IMG/VR virus record: IMGVR_UViG_3300042863_002274
Direction: 5' to 3' (one strand)
DNA from: a virus
Length of the DNA: 64,000 nt
Positions 483 through 55,472 of this stretch are shown here, piece after piece. The notes under the pieces were generated by a model. It had not been told where the DNA came from. It saw only the letters and a program-made list of their open reading frames with translations, and made no database searches. A program made the translations under genes and the position numbers. The number at the start of each line of letters is the position of its first letter. Within the stretch, counting starts at the first letter, position 1.

Positions 483-517
483 TTTACGCATATCTTCTAA
501 TGGTATTATTTAACTAA

Positions 518-3500
518 ATGTCTTCCGATAATGAATTCCCCATCCCTTTCGAGGAGTCCAGACGCGGTCTGGCGGCTAACCAAGAGGAAAAAGCGGCCGT
601 AGGGCGACTTGGTCAGTATTTAGCTTCTCGCGGAGTTAATAGACCGACAATCGGCGAAGGGCGCAAAAAAAGAAGAAGCGGCAATATCGAGCTTCCCACT
701 GGCGGCAAGCCAGGCCAAAGAAACCCTACCGGTTCGAGAAGAGACGTTGACGGCGATGGCTGGGCAGACGAGGGAACCACCAAGCCAGTATGGGTCGGCA
801 CCGAGAGTCAAGCAGGTAAGCCAAATACTGTTGCTCGTCTTTCTAGTGGCATGGTGCAACTTTCACCAACAGAGCGGCACGACTATGGCGCTCTTGTGGC
901 GTCAAAAAAAGTTCAAGCGAAAGACGTCAAAGGCAAAGGCGGAGAATACAGAATAGTCATAACGACATCGGGAACCGTAGCCGCATTTCTTGATTCAGAC
1001 ATTGAGAAAGAAAGAAACAACCTTCTCGACAGATTTAACGAGCTAGGCAAAAATCCTTTTACAAACAAAGAAGCCCCCCTTGCATTGAAGGACATTGATG
1101 ACCGGGATGTACTAAGAGGACTGCTCGATGACCAGCGAAAAATTAAACCATCAGCAGGAATGCAGGTCTACCTATCCGGCAAAGGCATTGAAGTTTTCGG
1201 AATAGAAACAAGAGAAAAACACCGCCGTCGTGGATTAGCAACAGAGATGTTTAACTTTCATCGTGAAGTATTTCCCGACCAAGACCTCCAACATAGCGAC
1301 GCGTTGACTGATGACGGTAGGGCTTTTGCCGACGCGACTCCCACTGTCTCCGTATCGGCAAAACTTTCCTCTGGCAAAGGACGTAATACAAAGCTAAACG
1401 TTACGCGCTATGGAAAAGACGACGAATACGCGCAGGTATCGTCTTTTGAAATTGACGGCAAAGTGTTTGAGATTTCTCGTGGTGGAGACTCTCCCGGCAG
1501 AGACATGTACAACGGTTACATCTCTGCGTTCGACGAGGATAAAAACGTTGCATACATCGACTACAATATGGATACAGAAAACAAGAAAGCCGTTGTGGCA
1601 ATGGTTTTCACCGATGAAGAATATCGTCGTCAAGGAATAGCCGAAGCCCTTCTTGATTCTTTTGTGACAGAAAATCCCGACTACGAGATAAGCCCTGGTG
1701 GCACCACCGACGAAGGTGGAGACTGGTGGCGTTCGGTTACTGGTGGGGATGGACCAATAAAAGCAGAAAAAGCTACACAAACGCAAGAAGGTCTCTTTTC
1801 ACCACGCAAAGGAGAGCAGGGAGACTCCGGCTCAAGGCTTTCTTCTGGAAAAAAATATCAGGAGATAGTTGATTCCCAGCCATCGTTAAGCGAAGATAAA
1901 AAACAATCGATAGCTAATTTTCTTGATGATATTGTGTCAGAAGAATTTCAAAAAGAAGATATTTATGTGCTTGATACCGGTCCGACGCCACCAAGGCCTC
2001 CCGGAATGCCAGAACCAAAGCCGAGACAAATACTTAAAGACGATGAAAAAAGAACTCTAGAAAAAGAACGAGTTCGCAACTTGTTAGCCGAAGTATTTAA
2101 AGGCGAGATGACCCTAGACAAAGACGTCATCATCACCGCTGACGACGGGACACAATTAAACATAGGAAAAAAAGTCCTAGTAGAAATAATGCCGCAATCT
2201 TCCTATGCGCCAGCGATAAAGGTAAAAAAGGCTTCTGAAAAAGACCTTGCGGAACAGGATGAATTAGGACTGTATGAAGAAAATATAAAAGAGGGTGACT
2301 TAGTAACAGAACTGCAACTTGAATTCAGGATTAAGCCACTTCCTGAGTACAGCGACGCACTCTTGGCTATATTTAATGATGAAGATGGAAAAAGATACAT
2401 TTCCAGAGAAGACGGTACACCGGCTCTTGCGACGGGATACAGAACATTCATTCAGGTGTCTGGAGATGACAAAGACGTTCGAATTGTCTCTCACGATTCT
2501 TTTTACATCAACAATCGTGCCCAAGGTCAAGGAATTGGGTCTGTTTTTAATGCTAGAAATGAAAAATTATACAACGAACTTGATGTTCGTTCCATAATTA
2601 CTTGGGGTAATTCCGGCAGTGGTTCAACCGGTGCTGTTCATTGGCCAAAAAATGGTTTCTCTTGGGCAGGAGAGAAAGATAAGCAGGATTTTATAAAATT
2701 AATTGATGAGGCAATCGTCAATACTCCAGAAATGTTTTCTGAAGAAGATAGAAAAAAGATATCTTCCCTGTACAGAAAAAATAACGATACTGGATTGTTT
2801 GAGACGGAAGCCACGGCAGAAGAGTTTGTAGATTTTCCTAAAGCAGACGAAGTTTTTTCTAATGCAAATGCTCAATTCTTCTACTCAAGACCACTAAGAG
2901 AGCTGGCTGGGGCTTCTTCTGGAAGTAGCGGTTCAGCAAGGCTTTCCAGTGGTAGAGCTCCTCGATACCCGCGCGAACCAACGCTGGGTGCTTTCCTTGA
3001 AGGAGCGCAAGAAAGATTTGAAGGCGTTGATTCCTGGGAGGAGTTCAAGGAGCGCTATGCCGAAACCGAAATGGTATTTCTTGACTACGAAACAACCGGA
3101 TTAGATTTCGACGAATTCGGTAAAGCAACCACAAACGGTAACCCAACGCAAATTGGTCTTGTAAGAATGAAGAACGGCAAAGAAATAGGCCGTTTAAATC
3201 TTTTCATGAACCCCGAACAGCCTCTTGGTGAATGGTCTTTAGCAAACCTTAAAGATGCAGATGGTAATCCAATAACCAACGAATGGCTTGCTACGCAAAT
3301 GCCAATGGCGGAAGCCCATAGACAAGTTGCTGAGTTTATTGGACCAGACGCAATCATTGGTGTACAGAATGCAACGTTTGATAAGAGAGTGCTTGAAGAT
3401 GCGTTAGAAAGAGACGGCATAGATTGGCGTCCTTCTGGCTATCTTGACACAAGAGACATAAGTGCAATGACCTTGCCTGTATGGAGCGAAGAGAGCCCAG

Positions 3501-6500
3501 AAGGTCCCTATATAACCGATAGAGACGGAAATAAAAAACCATCCAGCAGTCTTGCTGCAATAACCGAATATTTGGATGTTGAATTAGGTGAGGGTCACCA
3601 CAACGCCGATGCCGACGCTTTCGCAACCAGTCAGGTTATGCAGAAGATAATCGATAGAGCCATTGAGAACGGATGGTCCACTGACGTCTTGGATAAAGAA
3701 AAAAGAGACGCAAAACTAAAAGCAGACAACGATAAATTTAACGCAGATATTGAAAAGTTTGAATCAGACAAAGAGTCTTTTGTTTCAGCCCAGAAAGAAG
3801 AGGAAAGCACAAGGCTTTCTTCTGGAGCTAGAGCCAAAAGAAGCATTCCGCCGATATCTGAAATTAGGAAAGAAGTAGGGAGATTCTATAGAGAATCAGA
3901 AATGTCAGATGCAGATGTTGTTCGTACGTATCTTCAAATTAGAAACCGTGATGCAGAGGAATTATACGAATCAAGACATACTAGCGGCAGGGAAATATCC
4001 GACGAAATAGGTGAGCATTTCTCAAGGTTTCGAGACTTCATAGATAATGAGAGAATCTCAATAGACGGAATGAGCGATAGTGAAATTCTAGAAATCTTAA
4101 AAAAAGGAAAATATCGTTCAACAATAGATTCGTACGACAACGCAATAGACAATATTGGACCTGTTCCCTCAAAGAATTCAAATCGTCTTTCTTCCGGCAG
4201 ACAGCGCGAATTAATACCAATGAATGCTCCGTCAAAGGAGCGAAAAGGAACTGGTGCTACTGGCTACAGAACTCAAGACTCTTCAGGAAATTTGATTAGT
4301 AGGTATTCCTCAACGTGGCTTTCCGGTTTGAGTTCTGATGAAATTTCTAAGGTTGTTGTTCCTGTCAATGCTGATGAGCATTTCGAGATGTGGGCTGACG
4401 ATATTGCTGGACCAAACTGGCGAGCCAGTAAAAAACAGCAAAAATTCATCAAGAACTACTATGAGGAGCTACAAAAAGACTCAACTAATATTCCTGTTGA
4501 TTATTCTCCAGAATCAATAGCTGCTACCCAGAAATTAGTAAAAGACCTGCTGGATTCTTCCCCTTCTGTTATGTGGGTAATGCAAAACTTCGGAGCACCA
4601 TTGATTGTTCCGTTCACTCGCGAAGGAATGGACGCTTACGAAAACAGTCCAGACATGAAAGAACGACTAGAGCTTCTTGCCAAGCAACGCGGAACAGAAA
4701 AAATCCCATTTGTTAGCGGACTTGCAAATCGTTCCTTGGGGTCTATAGGTATTTCTCCACGAGCCCTGATAGATAGAGAATCGTTACTTAATGACGACAA
4801 GGGTGTTTACCCAATAAGTTTAGACCCAGACCGGGTTCCGGCACCACGAGATGCTCACATAGATAGGTCCCTAGAAGGAACACTCGTTCACGAGTTTGGA
4901 CACTGGATACATCACAGAGCGCTTTGGGATACGGAAACAAACGGCGCTTCAGGAAAAATGCGCTCATATTATGGAACTGGAAAGCTTTCTGACCCAAGAT
5001 ACGTAGCTTCGCTTGATGTTGCAGAAGAATACGGTGACTACGAAACTGACGACAAGAGAATAGAAATCTATTCGCAGTTCATCGACCTGACTGGAAGAAG
5101 CCCTGAAGAAATGTTCAGAGCCCACCCCGATGAGCCTCTCCTATCCACCTCTTACGGAAACATAAACAAAAGAGAGGCCATGGCAGAAGCCTTTGTTGCA
5201 ATAATGCATCCAAACAAGGAAATGCCAGAAAAGACCCTGAGCAAGAAACTCAGAAAAGACATTTATACGCTAATTGGCGTTGACGAAAAAAACCTTCCAT
5301 GGAGCGATTCTAAAGCTGGCTCGGAAAATCGCCTTTCATCGGGTGCCAAAAAAGACAAACGCAAAACAATTTTCTCAAGATTCAGAAAAGAAGAAACTGA
5401 AGAAGCAACCGTTGAGGAAAAAAGGAAACCTCCAGTAGTGGAGAGACCTGAAGGCCTGGTTTCGTTCGCTACCGAACCGTCAGAAGAATTGCTTAAAGCC
5501 TTACCAATACCTGATGAAGACACCTTAAAGAACGAGTTACTAAAAGACGTACAGTCTATAGCGTTGGAATTCGACAAAGGAGCCTATGGAAGTATTGACT
5601 CGATAGGGATGGGTTCAAGAGCTTCTATTATTGCCAAGAAAGCAATTACCGCAAACCTGTCTCGCTCGGTAGATTTTGATGTTGAAGATTTTATTAAAGT
5701 TTTTTCTGCAGGCAACGACCGTTTCGGTTTTCACAGTACGGAAACTTTTAAAGCAGTACAAAAAATGTACGAAACTGTAAAAAACCTACCAGCAGATGCT
5801 GCGAGCACGGAAAGAAGAACGGCTGCTAGGGGTGCTTTTGATACAAAAAGCGGACGTATTATTTCGGCAAAAATACATGACGACATTCTTGGTAGAGCAC
5901 GATATTACGACGAAATATTAGACAGGCTAGAAAAAGAAAACTTTGACGAACTTTTTGGCTCCTCTTTTGATGAATTAATGGCTACAGACGGTAGCGAAAA
6001 ATCACTTTTTACCCCTTATTTAATGACGAAACTTGGAACTGACGATATTAGAAGAGAGTTTCTAGAAGAGATAGAGCCACGGCGTGGACTTTTAAACCGC
6101 CTTATCGAAGCAGTTGAACTACAAGAAAGTAAAGCTTTCGGGCTTGCCAGAATAGGGGAAATAAATCCCAACACGGGAGAACGCGATTATGAAGTAATTT
6201 CATTACTGGGTCGTGGAGTAAACATGGGCGTCATGGATGCAATGTCGTCTCTTGATATTAGTGATGAAGATTATGGTCAAAAATTTGCAGATATTATGTC
6301 TGAGTTTAAAGGTTGGCTAACGGCAGAAAAACTCATGAAAATACGCGACTCGGGTTTGCTTAAAATAGATAGTTCAAACATTGATTCGCCAGAAATTAAA
6401 AAAGCACTAAAAGAGCATCTAGTAGCAAACGTACGTTCTAGAGCTGGAAATTTTGAATCAAAGCGGGAAAGCTACACAAACAAAACGGGAGTTGTGTTCT

Positions 6501-9500
6501 TTGATTTAGAGACAACCGAAGGAAAACGACTTGTTCGAGAATCTCTGATTTCCGACCTTATTCATACTTGGGCAATCTCGGCCAACAACGCAAACCCGGT
6601 TGCTCTTGCAGTTCAGCATGAAATAAGAAAGATGTTTGGATTGACCGAAGCCGTGGGTTGGTCAACTTGGCCGCTTAAAGCTCTTCTCCCGGAAGAAAGG
6701 GAGGAAATGTCGGCTCACGAATTTGACGGAGCTCCCGAATTGACGGATGCTCAATCAGCAATGATTAGACCGATTCTCCAAAATATATATGATGCTACTC
6801 AGCTTTATTACAAAACAAAAGGGGTTACACACGTACCCATATACAGAGGATTTTCTCAGAATAATATAGATTTAACCCCGGGAGTTATTTCACCGATAGA
6901 AACAACAATGCGGCCACTATCTTCATGGAGCACGAGCTCGGGAGTCGCTTTGGGTTTTAGTAATTCTGGAGGAGAAGTAGGTGGACCTTTGGAGCCTACA
7001 CTGCTTAAAGCTTTTGTTCCCGTTGAAGATATATTTTCACACCCATTGAGCGGGTTTGGGTGTCTTTCTGAAGATGAAGTAGTTGTTATTGGCAAGCCGG
7101 TCAAGGCTTTTGCGATTCTCGCGTACGACAGTGAGGAAGCAACACGTGCTAGAAACAGATTAAAAAACGCATCGATGTCAGCTATTGCCGGAGAAGGGAG
7201 AGCGTCTAAATTAACTACTTCAAATATTGAAGAGCTTATAAAGCCTGGTTCAGATTTGTCATTCATAGACGGAAGCGACCTAGACATAGAAGACGCAGAC
7301 CTACGCAGTGCAGACCTCACTGAAGCAAACTTATCCGGCGCAAGCCTGGTTGGTTCCAACCTGTCTGGCGCAAACTTAACAAACGCAAAGCTGAATAACG
7401 CAAACCTGTCTGACTCAAATCTGATTGGCGCAGACTTGTCTCGTGCAGACTTGCGTGGTGCAAACCTGGGTGGCGCAGACCTGTCCGGTGCAGACCTGAC
7501 GGGTGCAAACCTAATAGATGCTGACCTCTCAAATGCAAACCTGGAAGGCGCAAGACTTGAAAACGTAAGACTGGGTAGCGTAGACCTGTCTGGTACAAAC
7601 TTGACTGACGCAGACCTCACTGGTGCAAACGGCCACAATATAAACCTGAGTGGTGCTGACCTGACCAATGCAAACTTTACTGCTGGATTCCTTATGAATG
7701 CAAACTTGACTGATACAAACCTGAGCGGTACAGAATTGAGTTCTGCAAACCTAATGGGTGCGAAGCTGAATAAAGCAAACCTGACTGGCGCAAATCTGTC
7801 TTCTGCAGACATGGCTGATACAGACCTGACTCGTGCAAACCTAAGTGGTGCAAACCTAAGTGGTGCAGACCTAAGAATAGCAAACCTCACTGAGGTGGAC
7901 TTAACGGGCGCAGACTTGACTGGCGCAGACCTAACCCAAGCAAACCTCACTGGCGCAAACCTTGAAGCGGCAAACCTGACTGGTGCAAACCTCACTGATG
8001 CAATAATGCCCGAGGGATACGTCACGGCCGATAACCAGTCCTCTGAATCGGTCCAAAAACTTTCTTCAGGCAAGAAATCACACACTCCAGAATGGAAAAC
8101 AGTTGAAGAGATTGTTGATTTTGAAGTTCTTGGAGCATCTCCTGATGATAGCGAAGAAGACAGAGACGATATAGTCAAAGAGTCTGTTGGTGGAGACTGG
8201 ATGCAATGGGACCCATGTCGCGAAATAAGAACAGCCGCATACGAACTTGCTGGAATAGACGAGTACTCAGAACGAGACCCAAATATCACTCAAAGTGGTG
8301 GGTTCTTTGGAAACTCAAGATTTGACACAGCTATTTCTCCCGAAAAGAGAACCGAACAAGCCCGCTATCTTATGGCAAGCATTGTCGATTCTTTAACGAA
8401 CAAAGCAAGATACGAAAAACAGCCTTATCTATATAGAGCAATGGCGTTTTCGTCTCCAGAAGAAGGAAAACAGTTCTTCGACACAATGAAGGTCGGTAAT
8501 CAGGTAGATATACCGTTACTTGCTTTTGTTGAAATAGGTCCATCTCCTAGTGGGGACCATTTCTTGACAAGATTCGGCAACGACGCTCTCTTGGTGCTAG
8601 AAGACTTCCCTGGGTCATATCAAACGGGCGGAACATTTGAGCCAGTCTTCTCTAGCAGGTATGAAAGCGACACTCTTTACAACGTCAATGAATTTGCAGA
8701 AGCAATATTGGCTGATATAGAAAACGGAGTCTCTGACGAAGAGAATATTGAGAACGATACCGAGTTTGCTAACAGGCTTATAAAACTTGTTGATGATTAT
8801 CAAAAGTCCAGAGACCCGGCAGAGAGACGACAACTAAAAACAGACATAAAAGACACGCTGGATGAAGTGGGGAATGAAACCATAAAGCTTGAATGGGAAG
8901 GTGAGTCACTGCCTGAAGACCACGAAGATTATTACCTCGCTATGGAAGACGAGGAAACAGGAATGACTCCACGTGAATACGTTTCTGGAGGAAGACTTGA
9001 AGTTGTTAGCGTAAATCCAGACCCAACAAAGACTTACAAAGAAATAATCACGCTTCGCCAAGTTGGTGCTTTTGACCCACAAGAAAAGGGTGCTCTAGTT
9101 CTCAAAACCGACGGAGAAAACAGCACGAGATTATCCTCTGGCAAAAATCCTTCAAAGAAAGCAAAGCCAAAGAGCGTTCAGCTTCACGATGACGAATTTG
9201 AGAAAAAGTTTAATCAAAAAGTCCCCGATGGAGAGGGTGACTGCTTTAGTGAAGCAATACAGCAGGCTAGAAAACTGGCCGATGCCTACGAAAATGTAAA
9301 AATAGTACATGGCTATCCTCTTGGTACCGGAGGAGAAGCAGAAGGGCTCAGATTCCCACATGCATGGACAGAGTTCGAGAGAGACGGTCTGGTGTGGGTA
9401 CGGGATTACTCAAACGGCAACAGAGTAGAGTTTCCACAGATTCTCTACTATGGCATTGGAAATATTGAAGAAGCAGACGTAAGTAGATACGACATTAAGG

Positions 9501-9547
9501 AAGCAGAAGCAAACATGATAGAAAACGAACACTATGGCCCTTGGTAA
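518..9547 (+). CDS. 3009-aa polyvalent protein/polyprotein: 3 GNAT-like domains, DEDDh exonuclease, HExxH metallopeptidase, ADP-ribosyltransferase plus pentapeptide repeats, second ART-like domain, C-terminal transglutaminase/papain-like domain
   Basis: GNAT motif A: HRRRGLA, YRRQGIA, AQGQGIG. DEDDh: FLDYETTG/QNATFD/HNADADA. Peptidase: HEFGH...EAMAE. ART: IYRG...PLSSWST...EDE. A(D/N)LxG pentapeptides. ART-like: LYRAM...REYVSGG. Cys domain: GDCF...HAWTE...VRD. Nine [RK]LSSG linkers. Confidence 0.9.
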   Translation: MSSDNEFPIPFEESRRGLAANQEEKAAVGRLGQYLASRGVNRPTIGEGRKKRRSGNIELPTGGKPGQRNPTGSRRDVDGDGWADEGTTKPVWVGTESQAGKPNTVARLSSGMVQLSPTERHDYGALVASKKVQAKDVKGKGGEYRIVITTSGTVAAFLDSDIEKERNNLLDRFNELGKNPFTNKEAPLALKDIDDRDVLRGLLDDQRKIKPSAGMQVYLSGKGIEVFGIETREKHRRRGLATEMFNFHREVFPDQDLQHSDALTDDGRAFADATPTVSVSAKLSSGKGRNTKLNVTRYGKDDEYAQVSSFEIDGKVFEISRGGDSPGRDMYNGYISAFDEDKNVAYIDYNMDTENKKAVVAMVFTDEEYRRQGIAEALLDSFVTENPDYEISPGGTTDEGGDWWRSVTGGDGPIKAEKATQTQEGLFSPRKGEQGDSGSRLSSGKKYQEIVDSQPSLSEDKKQSIANFLDDIVSEEFQKEDIYVLDTGPTPPRPPGMPEPKPRQILKDDEKRTLEKERVRNLLAEVFKGEMTLDKDVIITADDGTQLNIGKKVLVEIMPQSSYAPAIKVKKASEKDLAEQDELGLYEENIKEGDLVTELQLEFRIKPLPEYSDALLAIFNDEDGKRYISREDGTPALATGYRTFIQVSGDDKDVRIVSHDSFYINNRAQGQGIGSVFNARNEKLYNELDVRSIITWGNSGSGSTGAVHWPKNGFSWAGEKDKQDFIKLIDEAIVNTPEMFSEEDRKKISSLYRKNNDTGLFETEATAEEFVDFPKADEVFSNANAQFFYSRPLRELAGASSGSSGSARLSSGRAPRYPREPTLGAFLEGAQERFEGVDSWEEFKERYAETEMVFLDYETTGLDFDEFGKATTNGNPTQIGLVRMKNGKEIGRLNLFMNPEQPLGEWSLANLKDADGNPITNEWLATQMPMAEAHRQVAEFIGPDAIIGVQNATFDKRVLEDALERDGIDWRPSGYLDTRDISAMTLPVWSEESPEGPYITDRDGNKKPSSSLAAITEYLDVELGEGHHNADADAFATSQVMQKIIDRAIENGWSTDVLDKEKRDAKLKADNDKFNADIEKFESDKESFVSAQKEEESTRLSSGARAKRSIPPISEIRKEVGRFYRESEMSDADVVRTYLQIRNRDAEELYESRHTSGREISDEIGEHFSRFRDFIDNERISIDGMSDSEILEILKKGKYRSTIDSYDNAIDNIGPVPSKNSNRLSSGRQRELIPMNAPSKERKGTGATGYRTQDSSGNLISRYSSTWLSGLSSDEISKVVVPVNADEHFEMWADDIAGPNWRASKKQQKFIKNYYEELQKDSTNIPVDYSPESIAATQKLVKDLLDSSPSVMWVMQNFGAPLIVPFTREGMDAYENSPDMKERLELLAKQRGTEKIPFVSGLANRSLGSIGISPRALIDRESLLNDDKGVYPISLDPDRVPAPRDAHIDRSLEGTLVHEFGHWIHHRALWDTETNGASGKMRSYYGTGKLSDPRYVASLDVAEEYGDYETDDKRIEIYSQFIDLTGRSPEEMFRAHPDEPLLSTSYGNINKREAMAEAFVAIMHPNKEMPEKTLSKKLRKDIYTLIGVDEKNLPWSDSKAGSENRLSSGAKKDKRKTIFSRFRKEETEEATVEEKRKPPVVERPEGLVSFATEPSEELLKALPIPDEDTLKNELLKDVQSIALEFDKGAYGSIDSIGMGSRASIIAKKAITANLSRSVDFDVEDFIKVFSAGNDRFGFHSTETFKAVQKMYETVKNLPADAASTERRTAARGAFDTKSGRIISAKIHDDILGRARYYDEILDRLEKENFDELFGSSFDELMATDGSEKSLFTPYLMTKLGTDDIRREFLEEIEPRRGLLNRLIEAVELQESKAFGLARIGEINPNTGERDYEVISLLGRGVNMGVMDAMSSLDISDEDYGQKFADIMSEFKGWLTAEKLMKIRDSGLLKIDSSNIDSPEIKKALKEHLVANVRSRAGNFESKRESYTNKTGVVFFDLETTEGKRLVRESLISDLIHTWAISANNANPVALAVQHEIRKMFGLTEAVGWSTWPLKALLPEEREEMSAHEFDGAPELTDAQSAMIRPILQNIYDATQLYYKTKGVTHVPIYRGFSQNNIDLTPGVISPIETTMRPLSSWSTSSGVALGFSNSGGEVGGPLEPTLLKAFVPVEDIFSHPLSGFGCLSEDEVVVIGKPVKAFAILAYDSEEATRARNRLKNASMSAIAGEGRASKLTTSNIEELIKPGSDLSFIDGSDLDIEDADLRSADLTEANLSGASLVGSNLSGANLTNAKLNNANLSDSNLIGADLSRADLRGANLGGADLSGADLTGANLIDADLSNANLEGARLENVRLGSVDLSGTNLTDADLTGANGHNINLSGADLTNANFTAGFLMNANLTDTNLSGTELSSANLMGAKLNKANLTGANLSSADMADTDLTRANLSGANLSGADLRIANLTEVDLTGADLTGADLTQANLTGANLEAANLTGANLTDAIMPEGYVTADNQSSESVQKLSSGKKSHTPEWKTVEEIVDFEVLGASPDDSEEDRDDIVKESVGGDWMQWDPCREIRTAAYELAGIDEYSERDPNITQSGGFFGNSRFDTAISPEKRTEQARYLMASIVDSLTNKARYEKQPYLYRAMAFSSPEEGKQFFDTMKVGNQVDIPLLAFVEIGPSPSGDHFLTRFGNDALLVLEDFPGSYQTGGTFEPVFSSRYESDTLYNVNEFAEAILADIENGVSDEENIENDTEFANRLIKLVDDYQKSRDPAERRQLKTDIKDTLDEVGNETIKLEWEGESLPEDHEDYYLAMEDEETGMTPREYVSGGRLEVVSVNPDPTKTYKEIITLRQVGAFDPQEKGALVLKTDGENSTRLSSGKNPSKKAKPKSVQLHDDEFEKKFNQKVPDGEGDCFSEAIQQARKLADAYENVKIVHGYPLGTGGEAEGLRFPHAWTEFERDGLVWVRDYSNGNRVEFPQILYYGIGNIEEADVSRYDIKEAEANMIENEHYGPW
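7270..8005 (+). repeat. Coding pentapeptide repeat tract (A[D/N]L[S/T]G-type, 15-nt periodicity) inside the giant ORF
   Basis: Roughly 48 degenerate gcaaacctgactggc/gcagacctg units. Confidence 0.95.
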
Positions 9548-12958: not shown

Positions 12959-13035
12959 GCTGGAGTATCCCCTCACTCTTATAAAGTGTAGAAAGGGTAG
13001 ATGGTGACACGCGAGTTCAAGTCTCGCCTCCAGCA
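12959..13035 (+). ncRNA. Non-canonical tRNA-like RNA (UAU loop; no D arm in the normal position)
   Basis: Acceptor stem GCTGGAG/CTCCAGC; T arm GCGAG-TTCAAGT-CTCGC; stem CACT/AGTG closing the 7-nt loop CT-TAT-AA. Confidence 0.7.
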
Positions 13036-14160: not shown

Positions 14161-14237
14161 GGGCCCTTAGCTCAGTTGGTTAGAGCGCCGGACTCATAAT
14201 CCGTCAGTCCTGGGTTCAAGTCCCAGAGGGCCCACCA
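14161..14237 (+). tRNA. tRNA with CAT anticodon, most likely tRNA-Ile2 (lysidine, reads AUA)
   Basis: Full cloverleaf: GGGCCCT/AGGGCCC, TAGCTCAGTTGGTTAGAGC, loop CTCATAA, GGTTCAAGTCC, encoded CCA; acceptor and D arm resemble Ile2 rather than initiator Met. Confidence 0.93.
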
Positions 14238-14830: not shown

Positions 14831-15889
14831 ATGAAGGGTTTAATTTTATCTGGCGGCTCTGGAACGAGACTTAGGCCAATAACACACACGAGCGCAAAAC
14901 AGTTAGTCCCCATTGCCAATAAGCCGATACTTTTTTACGGCATAGAAGACATGGTTAATGCTGGAATAACCGACATTGCAATCATTGTTGGCTCTACGGC
15001 GAACGAAGTAATTGAGGCCGTTGGGGACGGTTCGGCTTTTGGTGCAAAAATAACTTACATAACTCAGGGCGCTCCGCTTGGCTTGGCTCATTGCGTATAC
15101 ATCGCTTCAGATTTTCTAGGTGAAGATAATTTCGTCATGTATCTAGGAGATAACATGATTGAGTCCAGTCTTACCTCTTTTGTACTTGACGGTATGGCCG
15201 GTTTCGACGCAAAACTTCTTCTGAAAGAAGTCGAAGACGCTAGCCAGTTCGGAGTTGCTGAAATAGGTGATGACGGCCGAATAAAAACATTGGTAGAAAA
15301 ACCAGCCAACCCAAAATCCAATTTGGCGCTAGTTGGTGTTTACATGTTTTCAAAAGAAATACATCAAAGCATCAAAAGAATAAAAGCTTCACCGCGAGGC
15401 GAACTTGAAATAACGGACGCGATACAAAACTTAATAGATTCTGGCAGCAGAGTGGCTTACGAGATACTCGATGGCTGGTGGATTGATACTGGCAAAAAAG
15501 ACCCTCTTCTTGAGTGCAATAGGCTCGTTCTTGACGCTATCGAACGAGACATATACGACAACCCTCTTAACTCTTTTACGGCAGACGGAAAAGTAAAAAT
15601 AGGAAAGTCTCAGATATACAATTCCAGAATTATTGGGCCGGTATCTATAGCGGATAATGTAATAATTTCCGATTCGTATATCGGACCATACACATCCATA
15701 GGCCCTGACTGCGTTGTGAGAAATTCAGAAATTCAAAACTCCGTTCTTCTTAAAGGAAGCACAGTCACAGATATTGCAAGAATGAGCGACTCTCTAGTAG
15801 GACGTTCGGCTATTGTAAAACAATCAGAACAAAAACCGTCAGCACTGAAACTGATGATAAGTGACTACAGCGTAGTAGAGGTAGAGTAA
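14831..15889 (+). CDS. rmlA: Glucose-1-phosphate thymidylyltransferase (long form)
   Basis: GLILSGGSGTRLRPIT...KQLVPIANKP, EKP, RGELEITD; C-terminal LbH. Confidence 0.95.
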   Translation: MKGLILSGGSGTRLRPITHTSAKQLVPIANKPILFYGIEDMVNAGITDIAIIVGSTANEVIEAVGDGSAFGAKITYITQGAPLGLAHCVYIASDFLGEDNFVMYLGDNMIESSLTSFVLDGMAGFDAKLLLKEVEDASQFGVAEIGDDGRIKTLVEKPANPKSNLALVGVYMFSKEIHQSIKRIKASPRGELEITDAIQNLIDSGSRVAYEILDGWWIDTGKKDPLLECNRLVLDAIERDIYDNPLNSFTADGKVKIGKSQIYNSRIIGPVSIADNVIISDSYIGPYTSIGPDCVVRNSEIQNSVLLKGSTVTDIARMSDSLVGRSAIVKQSEQKPSALKLMISDYSVVEVE

Positions 15890-16455
15890 TGCCAAAATTT
15901 GAAGAGTGTACGGAAATAAAAGACGTATTAATAGTTCATCCCGACAAGCACGGAGACGAGCGTGGGTACTTCGTAGAGACATACAGGAGAAACTGGTTCC
16001 CTCTGGGTCGAGAAATGGTTCAAGGCAACAGGGGAGACAGAAAAGCTGGCTGCCTAGTAGGTCTTCATTATCATTTACATCAAGCAGATTATTGGTACGT
16101 ACCCTTTGGTGCGTGTTTGGTTATTCTTCACGACATTAGAGAAGGTTCCCCCACTTACGGCAATACCTACACGACACGGCTTGGAATGGTGGACGAGAAC
16201 ACCCACGACCACCGCGGCCTATTCATTCCGCCCGGCGTGGCACATGGGTTTTACTCAGTAACAGACATGACTATCACCTATATGGTTGATAACTACTACA
16301 ACAAAAACGACGAGTTGGGAATACTCTGGAACGACCCAGGCATACATATCGCCGATGCTATTGAAAATCCCACCGTTTCCGATAGGGATAAAAACAATCC
16401 GCTGATATTAGACATCCCGGCCGGGCTAAAACCAATTTACGACTCAAGGACATAA
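15889..16455 (+). CDS. rmlC: dTDP-4-dehydrorhamnose 3,5-epimerase
   Basis: DERGYFVE, GLHY, DIREGSPTYG, IPPGVAHGF. Confidence 0.95.
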   Translation: MPKFEECTEIKDVLIVHPDKHGDERGYFVETYRRNWFPLGREMVQGNRGDRKAGCLVGLHYHLHQADYWYVPFGACLVILHDIREGSPTYGNTYTTRLGMVDENTHDHRGLFIPPGVAHGFYSVTDMTITYMVDNYYNKNDELGILWNDPGIHIADAIENPTVSDRDKNNPLILDIPAGLKPIYDSRT

Positions 16456-16456
16456 C

Positions 16457-17416
16457 GTGAAGCACTTTGTAACCGGTGGAGCTGGGTTTATAGGCTCCAA
16501 CTATGTTCGCTACGTACTAAACAATACAGACGACGAAGTAACAGTTTACGACATGCTGACTTACGCAGGATTATTGACGACGATGAGCGACTTCATAGAT
16601 TCTCCACGTGTCCACTTTGCGTACGGAGACGTTTGCGACAAAGAATCTCTCCTTGCAGCCATGAAGGGGGCTGACTACGTAGTCCATTTTGCTGCAGAGA
16701 CCCATGTTGATAGGTCAATACTTCTTTCCGATGATTTCGTACGTACCAACTGCACTGGAACCGATTCCGTAATGAACATAGCGCAACATATAGGCGTAAA
16801 AAAGGTTGTACACATCGGAACTGACGAGGTTTACGGCTCCGTTGAGACTGGTTCGTCTTTAGAGACCGACCCACTAGAACCACGTTCCCCTTACTCGGCA
16901 TCCAAGGCGGGCTCAGACCTAATAGCGCTGTCTCACTTCCACACACACGGCCTACCGGTCTCGGTTACTAGGTGTACGAACAATTTCGGGCCATATCAGT
17001 TTCCAGAAAAAGCAATACCGCTATTTGTCACAAACATATTTCAAAACAAAAAAATACCTCTATATGGAGACGGTCTCAACGAAAGAGACTGGATTGACGT
17101 TCTTGACCACTGCGCTGCTGTACACAAAGTTCTTACACATGGTGAAAGTGGACAAATTTATAACATAGGCGCTGGCAACGGTACGTCAAATATAGACCTC
17201 GTAGGAATGATTCTTCGATACTTTGAGCAAGACCCCGCCGAGTGGATTGAGCGCGTTCAGGACAGAAAAGGACACGACAGACGTTATTCAGTAGACGTAA
17301 GTAAAATTACAAATCTTGGCTGGAAGCCTCTCCACAATATCGAAGACTCTCTTAGCTACACGATTGACTGGTATCGGTCTAATCGTTGGTGGTGGGAACC
17401 CCTCAAGGATGCATAA
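16457..17416 (+). CDS. rmlB: dTDP-glucose 4,6-dehydratase
   Basis: VTGGAGFIGS, HFAAETHVDRS, TDEVYG, YSASK, HDRRY. Confidence 0.95.
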   Translation: MKHFVTGGAGFIGSNYVRYVLNNTDDEVTVYDMLTYAGLLTTMSDFIDSPRVHFAYGDVCDKESLLAAMKGADYVVHFAAETHVDRSILLSDDFVRTNCTGTDSVMNIAQHIGVKKVVHIGTDEVYGSVETGSSLETDPLEPRSPYSASKAGSDLIALSHFHTHGLPVSVTRCTNNFGPYQFPEKAIPLFVTNIFQNKKIPLYGDGLNERDWIDVLDHCAAVHKVLTHGESGQIYNIGAGNGTSNIDLVGMILRYFEQDPAEWIERVQDRKGHDRRYSVDVSKITNLGWKPLHNIEDSLSYTIDWYRSNRWWWEPLKDA

Positions 17417-18254
17417 GGTTCTCGTAACTGGAGCTGGCGGACAGCTTGGCTTAGAAATAGTAGAACGCAGCATTGAGCACGGATACGAAACTGTCGCGCT
17501 TGACAAACGAGGACTCAACGTCAGCAATCAACAAGACGTAATTGATTCGATAAGAAAACACCAGCCAACACACATCATTCACTGTGCAGCATGGACAGCC
17601 GTGGATGAGTGCGAGAAGCATCAAGTCAAGGCGGAGTCAATAAACGCTGACGGCACTAGGTTCATAGTGCAAGCTGCTGCACAAGTAGGCGCACACGTAA
17701 CGTATATCTCAACGGACTATGTTTTTGACGGAAATAAAAAATCGCCTTACGAAGAAAACGATTCGCCTTCCCCTATCTCCACATACGGCTTAACAAAGCT
17801 TCAAGGAGAAACATGCATGAGGCCTACAGACTCGGTCATACGTGTGTCTTGGGTAAACGGCAAGAACGGTTCAAACATGGTCAAGACCATTCTTCGAATA
17901 GCGGAAGGCTCTTCGGAATTATCTTTTGTCGACGACCAGATTGGTCACCCTACATTTGCAGACGATGCTTCATTACGCATACTTGAAATGTCGATTTCTA
18001 ATTCTCCCGGTATTTGGCACGTGACGAATCAAGGACAAACGTCTTGGTGCGATTTCGCAAAGAATGTACTAGATTTCGCCGGCATCAGCACCCCCGTGAA
18101 ACCCGTAAAAACTGAAGACATCCGCAGCCAAAGGCCAGCTCATCGACCACTCAACTCTGTTCTAAGAAATAAAAGAATGGAAGATGAAAAAATAACATTG
18201 CTCGACCATCATCTTGTTCCGATGGAGCGACTTGTTAGGAAACTTTTGTCTTAA
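17409..18254 (+). CDS. rmlD: dTDP-4-dehydrorhamnose reductase
   Basis: VTGAGGQLG, AAWTAVD, STDYVFDG, YGLTK, DDQIGHPT; ATG at 17409. Confidence 0.95.
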   Translation: MHKVLVTGAGGQLGLEIVERSIEHGYETVALDKRGLNVSNQQDVIDSIRKHQPTHIIHCAAWTAVDECEKHQVKAESINADGTRFIVQAAAQVGAHVTYISTDYVFDGNKKSPYEENDSPSPISTYGLTKLQGETCMRPTDSVIRVSWVNGKNGSNMVKTILRIAEGSSELSFVDDQIGHPTFADDASLRILEMSISNSPGIWHVTNQGQTSWCDFAKNVLDFAGISTPVKPVKTEDIRSQRPAHRPLNSVLRNKRMEDEKITLLDHHLVPMERLVRKLLS

Positions 18255-19366
18255 CTACCGGAAGTTGCTTTCCAGTGACCTATCCCGCCGTTATCAAACA
18301 GATAACGAGCAACTTTTAGATTGCACTTAGAGTCAAGCAGTGCATCAATGTTTTTGACACCACATACGTTCTTTGTAACTGTCCGCCATGAAGAGTTGAT
18401 TTGTAATAAACCGTAATCTCGCGTGCCATTTGAGTTCTTCTTCGAAATTACTTTTTCTTGGCAGCGGCTTTCACGCCACATTATTTGCGAGAACTTCTTT
18501 ACCGGAACAAGCCCTTGCGCTTTCAGTTTACTTTCCCACTGAGGGCAACTTTTGACTACCGATACACCCACAGAAGATTTACTAACTCCAGCAGTAGTTA
18601 CCTGCTTGGGAGATTTCTTTACCTTGGGAACACCCGAAGTTGAAAGTTTCTTTTTCTTTAAGTAATGAACGTGAGCTTGTCTGGTCTTTGGACCATACAC
18701 ACTGTCGACCTTGAGATTAAGAAACATCTGCAAGTCATGAACGGCTTTACTACTTTCGTTAAATTTAAAAGAGAACAAAAGAACATCTTTAAAATTCTCG
18801 TAGTAGAAGAACTTTGGCTTACTCATCCTGTACTTACCCGTGGATTGAGATTTGTAACAACCCCATCCTCCGAGACCTACTGGCTTTTGGTCCCATAAAT
18901 ACACGGCAGGAATTCCCTGACGACGAGCCCAATCTGGGTCACGATGAACGACCTGCTTATAACCTTCGACAGAAATGCGGTTAGCCACGATTATCTGCTC
19001 TTCGCGAGTCGCCTTGTCTGGAGAAGAAGCGAACTGTTCGCCACCGTAACGCTCCCAAGTGCCCATCGACCCCTTCGGGAAACGACTGCTGGTCATTATT
19101 CCTAAGCCGCCAGCCCAACGGCCACCATTGGACCAATCGTTCGCAGTTTCACACTGCGCCAACTTTATCCAAAAAGAATCTGGGGCAAAAGCGTGCTCTC
19201 TCGCTACAGCAGAAGCTCTAATAGATTCTGGTGTAGCTACCGACTGAATCGTCACATGTTGTTCTACCGGTACCTCCTCTTCTGGAGAGGAGGAGGCGCG
19301 AGCTTCAAAAGCTGGCCCCAAAAGTAAAGCAGACAATGCAAAAATAATCAGTCGGTGTGGTTTCAC
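18251..19366 (-). CDS. Secreted muralytic enzyme: signal peptide, Rpf-like transglycosylase, PG-binding domain, SLT lytic transglycosylase
   Basis: WIKLAQCETANDW...GGL...TWERYGG...ATREEQI (Rpf); LQMFLNLKVDSVYGPKT (PG binding); RESRC...DYGLLQIN (SLT). Confidence 0.85.
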   Translation of the reverse strand: MKPHRLIIFALSALLLGPAFEARASSSPEEEVPVEQHVTIQSVATPESIRASAVAREHAFAPDSFWIKLAQCETANDWSNGGRWAGGLGIMTSSRFPKGSMGTWERYGGEQFASSPDKATREEQIIVANRISVEGYKQVVHRDPDWARRQGIPAVYLWDQKPVGLGGWGCYKSQSTGKYRMSKPKFFYYENFKDVLLFSFKFNESSKAVHDLQMFLNLKVDSVYGPKTRQAHVHYLKKKKLSTSGVPKVKKSPKQVTTAGVSKSSVGVSVVKSCPQWESKLKAQGLVPVKKFSQIMWRESRCQEKVISKKNSNGTRDYGLLQINSSWRTVTKNVCGVKNIDALLDSKCNLKVARYLFDNGGIGHWKATSGS

Positions 19367-54610: not shown

Positions 54611-54843
54611 TTGTTGCTTTCTTTTTTCCACTTGAGCATGTTGCGCCAATGAACCCATTGCCACAGTGCCCACATGGCGATAAAGCCAGGCTTGTTAAAT
54701 ATGATTGCGTAAAGAAACCAAGGGAATGAGTGGAGGGCAACAATCATGTGCCCATGCCATTTCTTGTTCCCTACTGTATAGCTTCCATATACTCCGACTA
54801 GTTCCATCAGGAACAGGAGCCAAGTCCATGTAGTTTCGCTCAT
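54607..54843 (-). CDS. Small Trp-rich membrane protein (PnuC-like half)
   Basis: Three hydrophobic segments. Confidence 0.6.
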   Translation of the reverse strand: MSETTWTWLLFLMELVGVYGSYTVGNKKWHGHMIVALHSFPWFLYAIIFNKPGFIAMWALWQWVHWRNMLKWKKESNK

Positions 54844-55472
54844 TTTGAGGCCGGCGATTTAGGTTCCGTTGTTTGTACGTATGTATGAAACGGTGAACCG
54901 GTATGGGGGTCTAGTTTTGCCGATATTCCCAAAGCCTTTAGGCATACGCTTTTGGCTTGTGTGGAGGATAGTTTCTTTCCGCCAGCTAGAGCGCTTATCG
55001 CTCCAAGGGCATATTCTGAACCACTGCCTACTGCATAGTGCCCTGTTGAGTCATTGAGCCAGGAATAGTCGCTGTCGATTACGTAGATAGTTGCATTGAC
55101 TACTAGCAGGAGAGTTGAACCCTGCTCAGCTATGTGTTCCTTGTTCTCTTTGTTCTCTGGTGGAGAATAGCCATGAAGGTCAAAGCAGGCTCTCATTGCT
55201 GGTATAAATTTAACTGTAATGAACTGGTCGAGCTTCTTGCCTTTTGTACCTACTGGTACTGGAGGAGGAGCAAACGCGTGAGTTAAGAGATTAATTGCTC
55301 TTAGGTCTCCGGCTGTACCGATTAAGTATTTGCCGTTTGTTGCTATCTTTGAAGTCCCTGAACCCAGGCTAGTCATGTGATAAGCCGGGCCGTCATCGGA
55401 AAACGAGGTAATACGTGTATCTGCCGCGATAACAGCAAATCCTTCGCCTTGTATTCCTACTACAGTTGTCAT
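54840..55472 (-). CDS. Proteasome-beta/HslV-like Ntn-hydrolase protease
   Basis: M-TT start, AADTR, SK, GTAGD, AVGSGS. Confidence 0.85.
   Translation of the reverse strand: MTTVVGIQGEGFAVIAADTRITSFSDDGPAYHMTSLGSGTSKIATNGKYLIGTAGDLRAINLLTHAFAPPPVPVGTKGKKLDQFITVKFIPAMRACFDLHGYSPPENKENKEHIAEQGSTLLLVVNATIYVIDSDYSWLNDSTGHYAVGSGSEYALGAISALAGGKKLSSTQAKSVCLKALGISAKLDPHTGSPFHTYVQTTEPKSPASK

Follow-up and report, generated by a model that had tools for sequence, protein, structure and literature searches.

Polyvalent proteins unite 2-15 conflict domains of unrelated biochemistry in a single chain (PMC5512222). Processing of such proteins by zincins was proposed by Iyer et al., who cited P1 DdrB as a processed case (PMC5512222). 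Here, we describe a polyprotein of 3009 amino acids (aa) encoded in a stretch of virus DNA of 64,000 nucleotides (nt) (IMG/VR record IMGVR_UViG_3300042863_002274; hereafter the window), in which a leader and nine modules are separated by nine copies of a short tag, LSSG (Table 1). A preliminary description of the window, made from its letters alone, had likened this to phage polyvalent proteins, and the likeness holds: unrelated conflict domains share one chain, the protein is phage-encoded, as its homologs lie in complete IMG/VR genomes that also have terminase, portal, capsid and sheath genes, and its composition is mosaic among orthologs. We consider it probable that the polyprotein is carried in the virion and that LSSG is a phage-wide processing signal, and the narrower claim that some protease cuts the tag appears likely.

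The nine [RK]LSSG copies lie exactly where the preliminary description had placed them, and one-mismatch variants do not occur elsewhere in the 3009 aa. From composition, 0.016 copies of [RK]LSSG and 0.135 of LSSG would be expected (Poisson P ~2e-22 and ~4e-14). As had been noted, a basic residue usually follows the tag (K or R after six of nine copies). The basic residue that precedes it in the motif as first described is less constant: we take the core of the motif to be LSSG, with the preceding R/K optional, because among relatives the residue before L is R or K in no more than 71 of the 101 distinct contexts. Motifs 8 and 9, the two of the nine that our structure model reaches, both fall in coil rather than inside a folded domain, in a model of low confidence (mean predicted local distance difference test score, pLDDT, of 45).

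Comparison with related phages places the tag at the borders of exchangeable units. A search of IMG/VR with the leader returned 33 loci; complete relatives, which we identify as freshwater actinobacterial myophages, have genomes of 140-159 kb with terminase, portal, PF04586 prohead protease, PF05065 capsid and tail sheath, and head and tail genes are read throughout from these relatives, not from the window. When the homologs are split at the tag, they yield units that reappear in varying order, number and combination. The arrangement that the preliminary description envisaged, a constant leader with shuffled cargo, was found among 17 distinct homologs, which differ in module order and content and whose alignments start directly behind a tag. 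The placement of the motif at domain junctions was likewise borne out: in motif-masked alignments, 16 of 21 starts and 21 of 28 ends (37 of 49 breakpoints) lie no more than 15 aa from a window motif, compared to 9.3% of positions, although relatives share breakpoints, which are not independent and hence give no valid P value.

The tag is used across the genome in a restricted set of proteins. Two complete relatives (G001 and G003) contain 22 and 19 copies of LSSG, all in four proteins longer than 1500 aa, and none in the remaining 95 and 99 proteins. These carriers are the window-protein homolog, a prohead-protease-fused polyprotein, a third head polyprotein encoded between the scaffold and capsid genes, and a presumed tape measure, a 1600-aa protein that follows the sheath, tube and chaperone positions. 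The closest relative (G015), with 82-96% DNA identity in shared blocks, has all three polyproteins. Over 80 protease loci examined, the tag drifts among LSSG, FSSG, GFASR, GFSSS, GLASS and LGSR, and the presumed tape measure carries its lineage's own version at ~aa 35-55 and ~575-670. In 12 genomes, the mid-protein tag is present in all 12 and the N-terminal tag in 11, against ~0.15 and ~0.05 expected per genome, and the tape-measure tag matches that of the genome's own polyprotein (0 of 20,000 permutations were as good, a result to which common descent contributes). The prediction that tape measures follow the local tag was tested on five of these genomes and held, as all five carry the local version. 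The C-terminus of one presumed tape measure (L045:10802-15604 (+)) has the SxHxxGxAxD...H pattern of LAS/M15-type cell-wall peptidases, and a cut at the mid-protein tag would split this part from the N-terminal hydrophobic part.

One alternative interpretation is that the tag is a short binding motif rather than a cut site, docking the chain to a prohead scaffold, to an ejection chaperone, or to a host translocon or unfoldase by which it is threaded module by module. All four carriers are long and would pass through the portal or tail, some tags are only 7-30 aa apart, and uncut transfer is known for polyvalent proteins (PMC5512222). However, the tags lie strictly at module borders and whole modules are exchanged, module 9 has a stand-alone homolog of 133 aa, and the leader already has a separate universal candidate tag. 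We therefore regard a binding motif as unlikely.

This second tag, DxDGDG...EGT, is a candidate packaging or ejection tag. Together with an upstream xxK|[AGS] site (the bar marks the predicted cut), from which it is separated by 27-56 aa, it is common to PF04586 protease-fused polyproteins, whose genes adjoin those for portal and terminase. HK97-family proteases cut after Lys; K25 of the predicted EEK|A site is invariant in 12 leaders, and the major capsid protein has a site of the same type, EIK|S, at the end of its HK97-like delta domain. The HK97-type prohead protease could itself cut the LSSG tags within the prohead, much like T4 gp21 or SPN3US gp245, which process many head proteins: it is fused to one tagged polyprotein and universal in the phage family, K or R precedes L in most sites, and multi-substrate head proteases are known (PMC10052503). 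We judge this improbable. Capsid, scaffold and leaders have a distinct ExK|[AS] site; the S78 protease domain is 79-98% identical across lineages, though the tag drifts to GFASR, GLASS and LGSR without a basic residue; and tails assemble apart from heads, so that the tape measure should not meet the enzyme. There appear instead to be two signals, ExK|A/S for head maturation and a separate junction code for another reader, because the protease domain stays nearly constant while the tags differ and its own predicted sites are ExK|A/S.

Two further observations concern the head region. The third head polyprotein (L043:9003-16175 (-)) and a 676-aa head-operon protein (L043:5834-7861 (-)), neither of which has a Pfam or PHROG match, both contain a CP.G....G/N.FTD motif towards the N-terminus, possibly a second kind of packaging tag. 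Two marine metagenome-assembled genome (MAG) contigs (L214 and L215) have related head modules in which the protease lacks fused long cargo; no clear LSSG-type array was seen in their DxDGDG-tagged giant proteins.

The codons of the tag bear on whether it acts as DNA, that is, as a microhomology or recombination site left by module shuffling and without peptide function. Homology breakpoints coincide with the motif, CTTTC occurs in eight of the nine window copies (CTT being the Leu codon in eight), and TCT is enriched about twofold at the tag Ser codons (0.45 and 0.41 compared to a background of 0.24). Yet the other codons follow background, all six Leu, six Ser and four Gly codons are used in 105 sites from 15 genes of relatives, and these sites comprise 79 different 12-mers with both TCN and AGY Ser codons and no longer DNA consensus, in agreement with the earlier claim that the peptide and not the DNA is conserved. 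The tag is also kept at two fixed sites of the unshuffled tape measure, between unrelated flanks, and a DNA relic is thus very improbable. Still less probable is a site for covalent modification of virion proteins, such as Ser phosphorylation or glycosylation; the third tag residue is always Ser and the window encodes a complete dTDP-L-rhamnose pathway (rmlA, rmlC, rmlB and rmlD, 14831-18254 (+)), but the surface proteins (capsid, sheath and fibres) lack the tag and its junction-only placement would be left unexplained. That module 9 cuts after G, like LxGG-specific papain-like proteases, is scarcely credible despite its intact triad and weak papain-like fold matches, as the module is in only three polyproteins, the fourth tag residue varies (G, R, S, T), and the lack of a match in five complete tag-using genomes (0/5) led us to reject it as an obligatory reader.

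If LSSG is a processing signal, three universal proteins are candidate readers: the S78 protease, an HslV-like Thr protease, and the HExxH domain of the third head polyprotein. The HExxH motif has a fixed position, does not vary among 19 sequences that share as little as 16% identity, and is present in all five further genomes; its domain gives weak fold matches that include several zincins (Z 3.7-4.7). Identity in this domain is 74-78% and 43% in LSSG genomes, 39% in FSSG genomes and at most 29% elsewhere, a divergence in step with the tag that descent alone could also give. Provided that the tag is cut, this zincin is our leading candidate, with somewhat less than an even chance of being the reader, and it is the weakest step of the proposal. 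A host protease is unlikely to be the reader, the S78 protease and the module-6-type zincins are each slightly less likely than that, and the HslV-like protein is the least probable of these. The HslV-like gene occurs in seven of seven near-complete relatives, but its divergence does not track the tag (G006, of LSSG type, is 52% identical to G001, and genomes with other tags 49-60%), which is weak evidence against it. Most stand-alone polyproteins contain a module-6-type zincin, commonly with additional HExxH copies next to it, and these zincins behave like cargo; none was found in G010, which is 91% complete. MPTase-PolyVal was rejected as an obligatory reader, being absent from the full-length tagged protease polyproteins L152, L153, L155, L158 and L172 and from near-complete G010 and G013.

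We regard processing in two steps as probable. The polyprotein would be recruited to the prohead via its leader, and the S78 protease would cut EEK|A, removing the first 25 residues and exposing the DxDGDG tag. A second enzyme, perhaps the HExxH zincin encoded in the head operon, would then cut the LSSG tags (before L, after L or after G), most likely on or after ejection into the host. Each enzyme of the chain would thereby become a free early effector: the acetyltransferases, the exonuclease, the metallopeptidase, the ADP-ribosyltransferases and the Cys-triad enzyme. We base this timing on the tape measure, which sets tail length only while intact and afterwards sits in the tube lumen: before assembly, a cut in mid-protein would destroy the ruler, and once the tail is built the tag is hidden in the tube. 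The scheme in its fullest form is possible rather than likely; in it, the head protease unmasks a common leader, and a co-ejected phage zinc protease reads a lineage-specific code of four to five residues in all ejected proteins, head cargo as well as tape measure, after injection, converting ~10,000 residues of virion protein into dozens of exchangeable effectors.

Several observations weigh against processing of virion-carried proteins by this zincin. Its fold matches are weak, and one of them is to the nuclease YbeY. The presumed tape measure has no match by hidden Markov model or BLAST, its label deriving from gene order and length only. Some 10 kb separate the gene for the window-protein homolog from the head operon, and it stands behind genes for ribonucleotide reductase and primase-helicase. 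Module 7 (905 aa), like several segments in relatives, comprises more than one domain with no tag between. Lastly, among polyvalent proteins, N4 virion RNA polymerase, ArdC and TraC1 are transferred uncut despite carrying zincins (PMC5512222).

The labels that the preliminary description gave to the segments stand in part. The second GNAT, the DEDDh exonuclease and the pentapeptide repeats score above Pfam cut-offs, whereas the first and third GNATs, the HExxH peptidase, both ADP-ribosyltransferase (ART) modules and the Cys-His-Asp domain are recognized only through catalytic motifs and weak profile or fold matches. A zincin-like MPTase is a common though not obligatory component of polyvalent proteins; module 6, with its HExxH...E signature, does not reach the cut-off of PF18818 (E 0.018), whereas PF18818 matches the sister polyprotein in full (E 1.8e-39). 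In the ART core of module 7, R2110, LSSWS and E2185-x-E2187 are conserved in 10 homologs. The weak fold matches of module 9 are mostly to papain-like proteases and deamidases. Foldseek returned no match at E<=0.001 for either of the two models, and matches in a structure search with the module 8-9 model (VIA) were filled by helical bundles. No stand-alone homolog of module 5 was found in the length range searched. Pentapeptide repeats are joined to the ART module in only some homologs and are cargo in other polyproteins too (the L146 protease polyprotein and L113:9150-11900); over the window's pentapeptide region lies an antisense frame of 477 aa (6856-8289 (-)), probably a shadow of repeat codons. 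A role in host takeover, as proposed earlier, is suggested by the family membership of the modules. T4 Alt is an injected ADP-ribosyltransferase, and by analogy the targets are most likely host macromolecules. For the ADP-ribosyltransferases that freshwater phages encode, a function against grazers has been put forward (PMC6802176).

Table 1. Coordinates of the polyprotein gene, its tags and modules, and related features in the window
Feature	Position (nt)	Strand	Remarks
Polyvalent polyprotein gene	518..9547	+	3009 aa; open reading frame without internal stop
Extended -10-like element TGGTATTAT	501..509	+	8 nt upstream of ATG; without Shine-Dalgarno
Leader, aa 1-106	518..835	+	sole part constant in all homologs
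EEK|A, predicted HK97-type (S78) prohead protease site	584..595	+	cleavage predicted
DxDGDG...EGT tag in leader	743..778	+	common to prohead-protease-fused polyproteins
Motif 1 RLSSG	836..850	+	aa 107
Module 1, probable GNAT	851..1360	+	weak: Pfam E 0.1; conserved RRRGxA
Motif 2 KLSSG	1361..1375	+	aa 282
Module 2, GNAT acetyltransferase	1376..1834	+	PF00583, E 6.8e-7 searched alone
Motif 3 RLSSG	1835..1849	+	aa 440
Module 3, probable GNAT	1850..2938	+	best PDB matches GNATs, E 0.07-0.8; QGxG motif
Motif 4 RLSSG	2939..2953	+	aa 808
Module 4, DEDDh 3'-5' exonuclease	2954..3811	+	PF00929, E 6.4e-10
Motif 5 RLSSG	3812..3826	+	aa 1099
Module 5	3827..4183	+	one homolog, at another position in G001
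Motif 6 RLSSG	4184..4198	+	aa 1223
Module 6, gluzincin-type metallopeptidase signature	4199..5329	+	H1458, E1459, H1462, E1553 invariant in 6 homologs
Motif 7 RLSSG	5330..5344	+	aa 1605
Module 7, helical region, then R-S-E class ADP-ribosyltransferase core, then pentapeptide repeats	5345..8056	+	
Pentapeptide repeats of module 7	about 7268-8002	+	above Pfam cut-off
Motif 8 KLSSG	8057..8071	+	aa 2514; coil, pLDDT ~25, low-confidence model
Module 8, ART-like	8072..9127	+	Atlas ADPrib_exo_Tox/Mod clusters 0.88-0.90; lead only
Motif 9 RLSSG	9128..9142	+	aa 2871; coil, pLDDT ~20-26, low-confidence model
Module 9, papain/transglutaminase-like Cys2909-His2948-Asp2963 domain	9143..9544	+	
HslV/proteasome-beta-like Thr protease gene	54840..55472	-	rival candidate reader; starts MTT; often beside whiB gene

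The gene is probably expressed from a leaderless transcript, a role for the -10-like element being suggested by its position; the element is conserved in G001, G003, G004 and G007 and almost conserved in G006. One public contig matches the gene over its full length with no differences (it may come from the source sample), and in the public contigs compared there is no joint at any motif, those in the pentapeptide region being repeat artefacts. The gene is contained in 24 lake or freshwater metagenome runs, and no RNA data sets are among the runs listed. The use of whiB as a marker for actinobacterial hosts has been described (PMC6802176), and two or three whiB genes are present in each of five complete relatives. 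We conclude that the host is an actinobacterium because of these genes, a window protein that combines an Rpf-like transglycosylase with an SLT domain (18251-19366 (-)), and the nearest cultured proteases, which are those of Gordonia phages (~43% identity). Matches in GTDB named no host, as they were phage contigs within MAGs of mixed taxa. Elsewhere in the window, ARAGORN finds only a tRNA-Met (14161-14237), missing an atypical tRNA-like element at 12959-13035 (+) that scores 33.2 bits against the Rfam tRNA model (cut-off 29).

RNA-virus polyproteins and the protease motifs of adenoviruses and coronaviruses combine a single chain with a short site repeated between domains and a virus-encoded protease. 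Their likeness to this locus is one of analogy only, as here the virus is a bacterial double-stranded DNA virus with freely shuffled cargo, no homology and putative cleavage. T4 gp21 is a head protease. The T4 internal proteins and Alt, and the ejection proteins of SPN3US and phiKZ (gp245/gp175; PMC10052503), share with the window protein an N-terminal leader and, as predictions for the latter, its removal by a head protease and ejection into the host. In those phages the protease trims propeptides at (hydrophobic/small)-x-E, whereas the tag described here is a second motif, placed between nine modules and found in a tail protein as well; nor is the maturation enzyme of T4 type (gp21-like, cutting after Glu), as the protease is PF04586 (S78), the capsid PF05065 and the predicted sites follow Lys. 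MuF- and protease-fused head effectors (PMC9503650) similarly place effector domains on head proteins, including a capsid-processing serine peptidase, but the cargo here is a long punctuated array, and no MuF domain was matched in polyprotein or leader by Pfam or PHROGs profiles.

The closest likeness is to polyvalent proteins (PMC5512222, PMC9503650), which combine GNAT, ART, nuclease and zincin domains in one chain, have predicted virion delivery, and join ArdC-N, MPTase-PolyVal and helicase, as does the sister polyprotein here. In the described proteins, however, the assemblin-like protease is C-terminal rather than N-terminal, and a term search of that study ('linker' 0, 'polyprotein' 2) gave no junction motif and no tape-measure code, both of which are found here (PMC5512222). 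Our literature search, which was incomplete and covered few subscription journals, found only unrelated papers on LSSG, no motif-punctuated phage polyproteins or protease-cut tape measures, and no published junction code common to head cargo and tape measure. If the proposal is correct, polyprotein logic in the style of RNA viruses operates in a widespread freshwater actinophage family and explains how injected effectors are gained and swapped. The 2017 processing proposal came with neither a site nor an enzyme; an exact candidate site, its natural variants and a short list of candidate proteases make it testable on peptides and recombinant domains, so that no cultured phage is needed. If correct, it could also supply a sequence-specific protease that is new and has lineage variants, as well as a leader with which to load capsids. 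Polyvalent proteins and their proposed processing by zincins were thus already known; what this locus would add is a candidate site and a code common to head cargo and tape measure.

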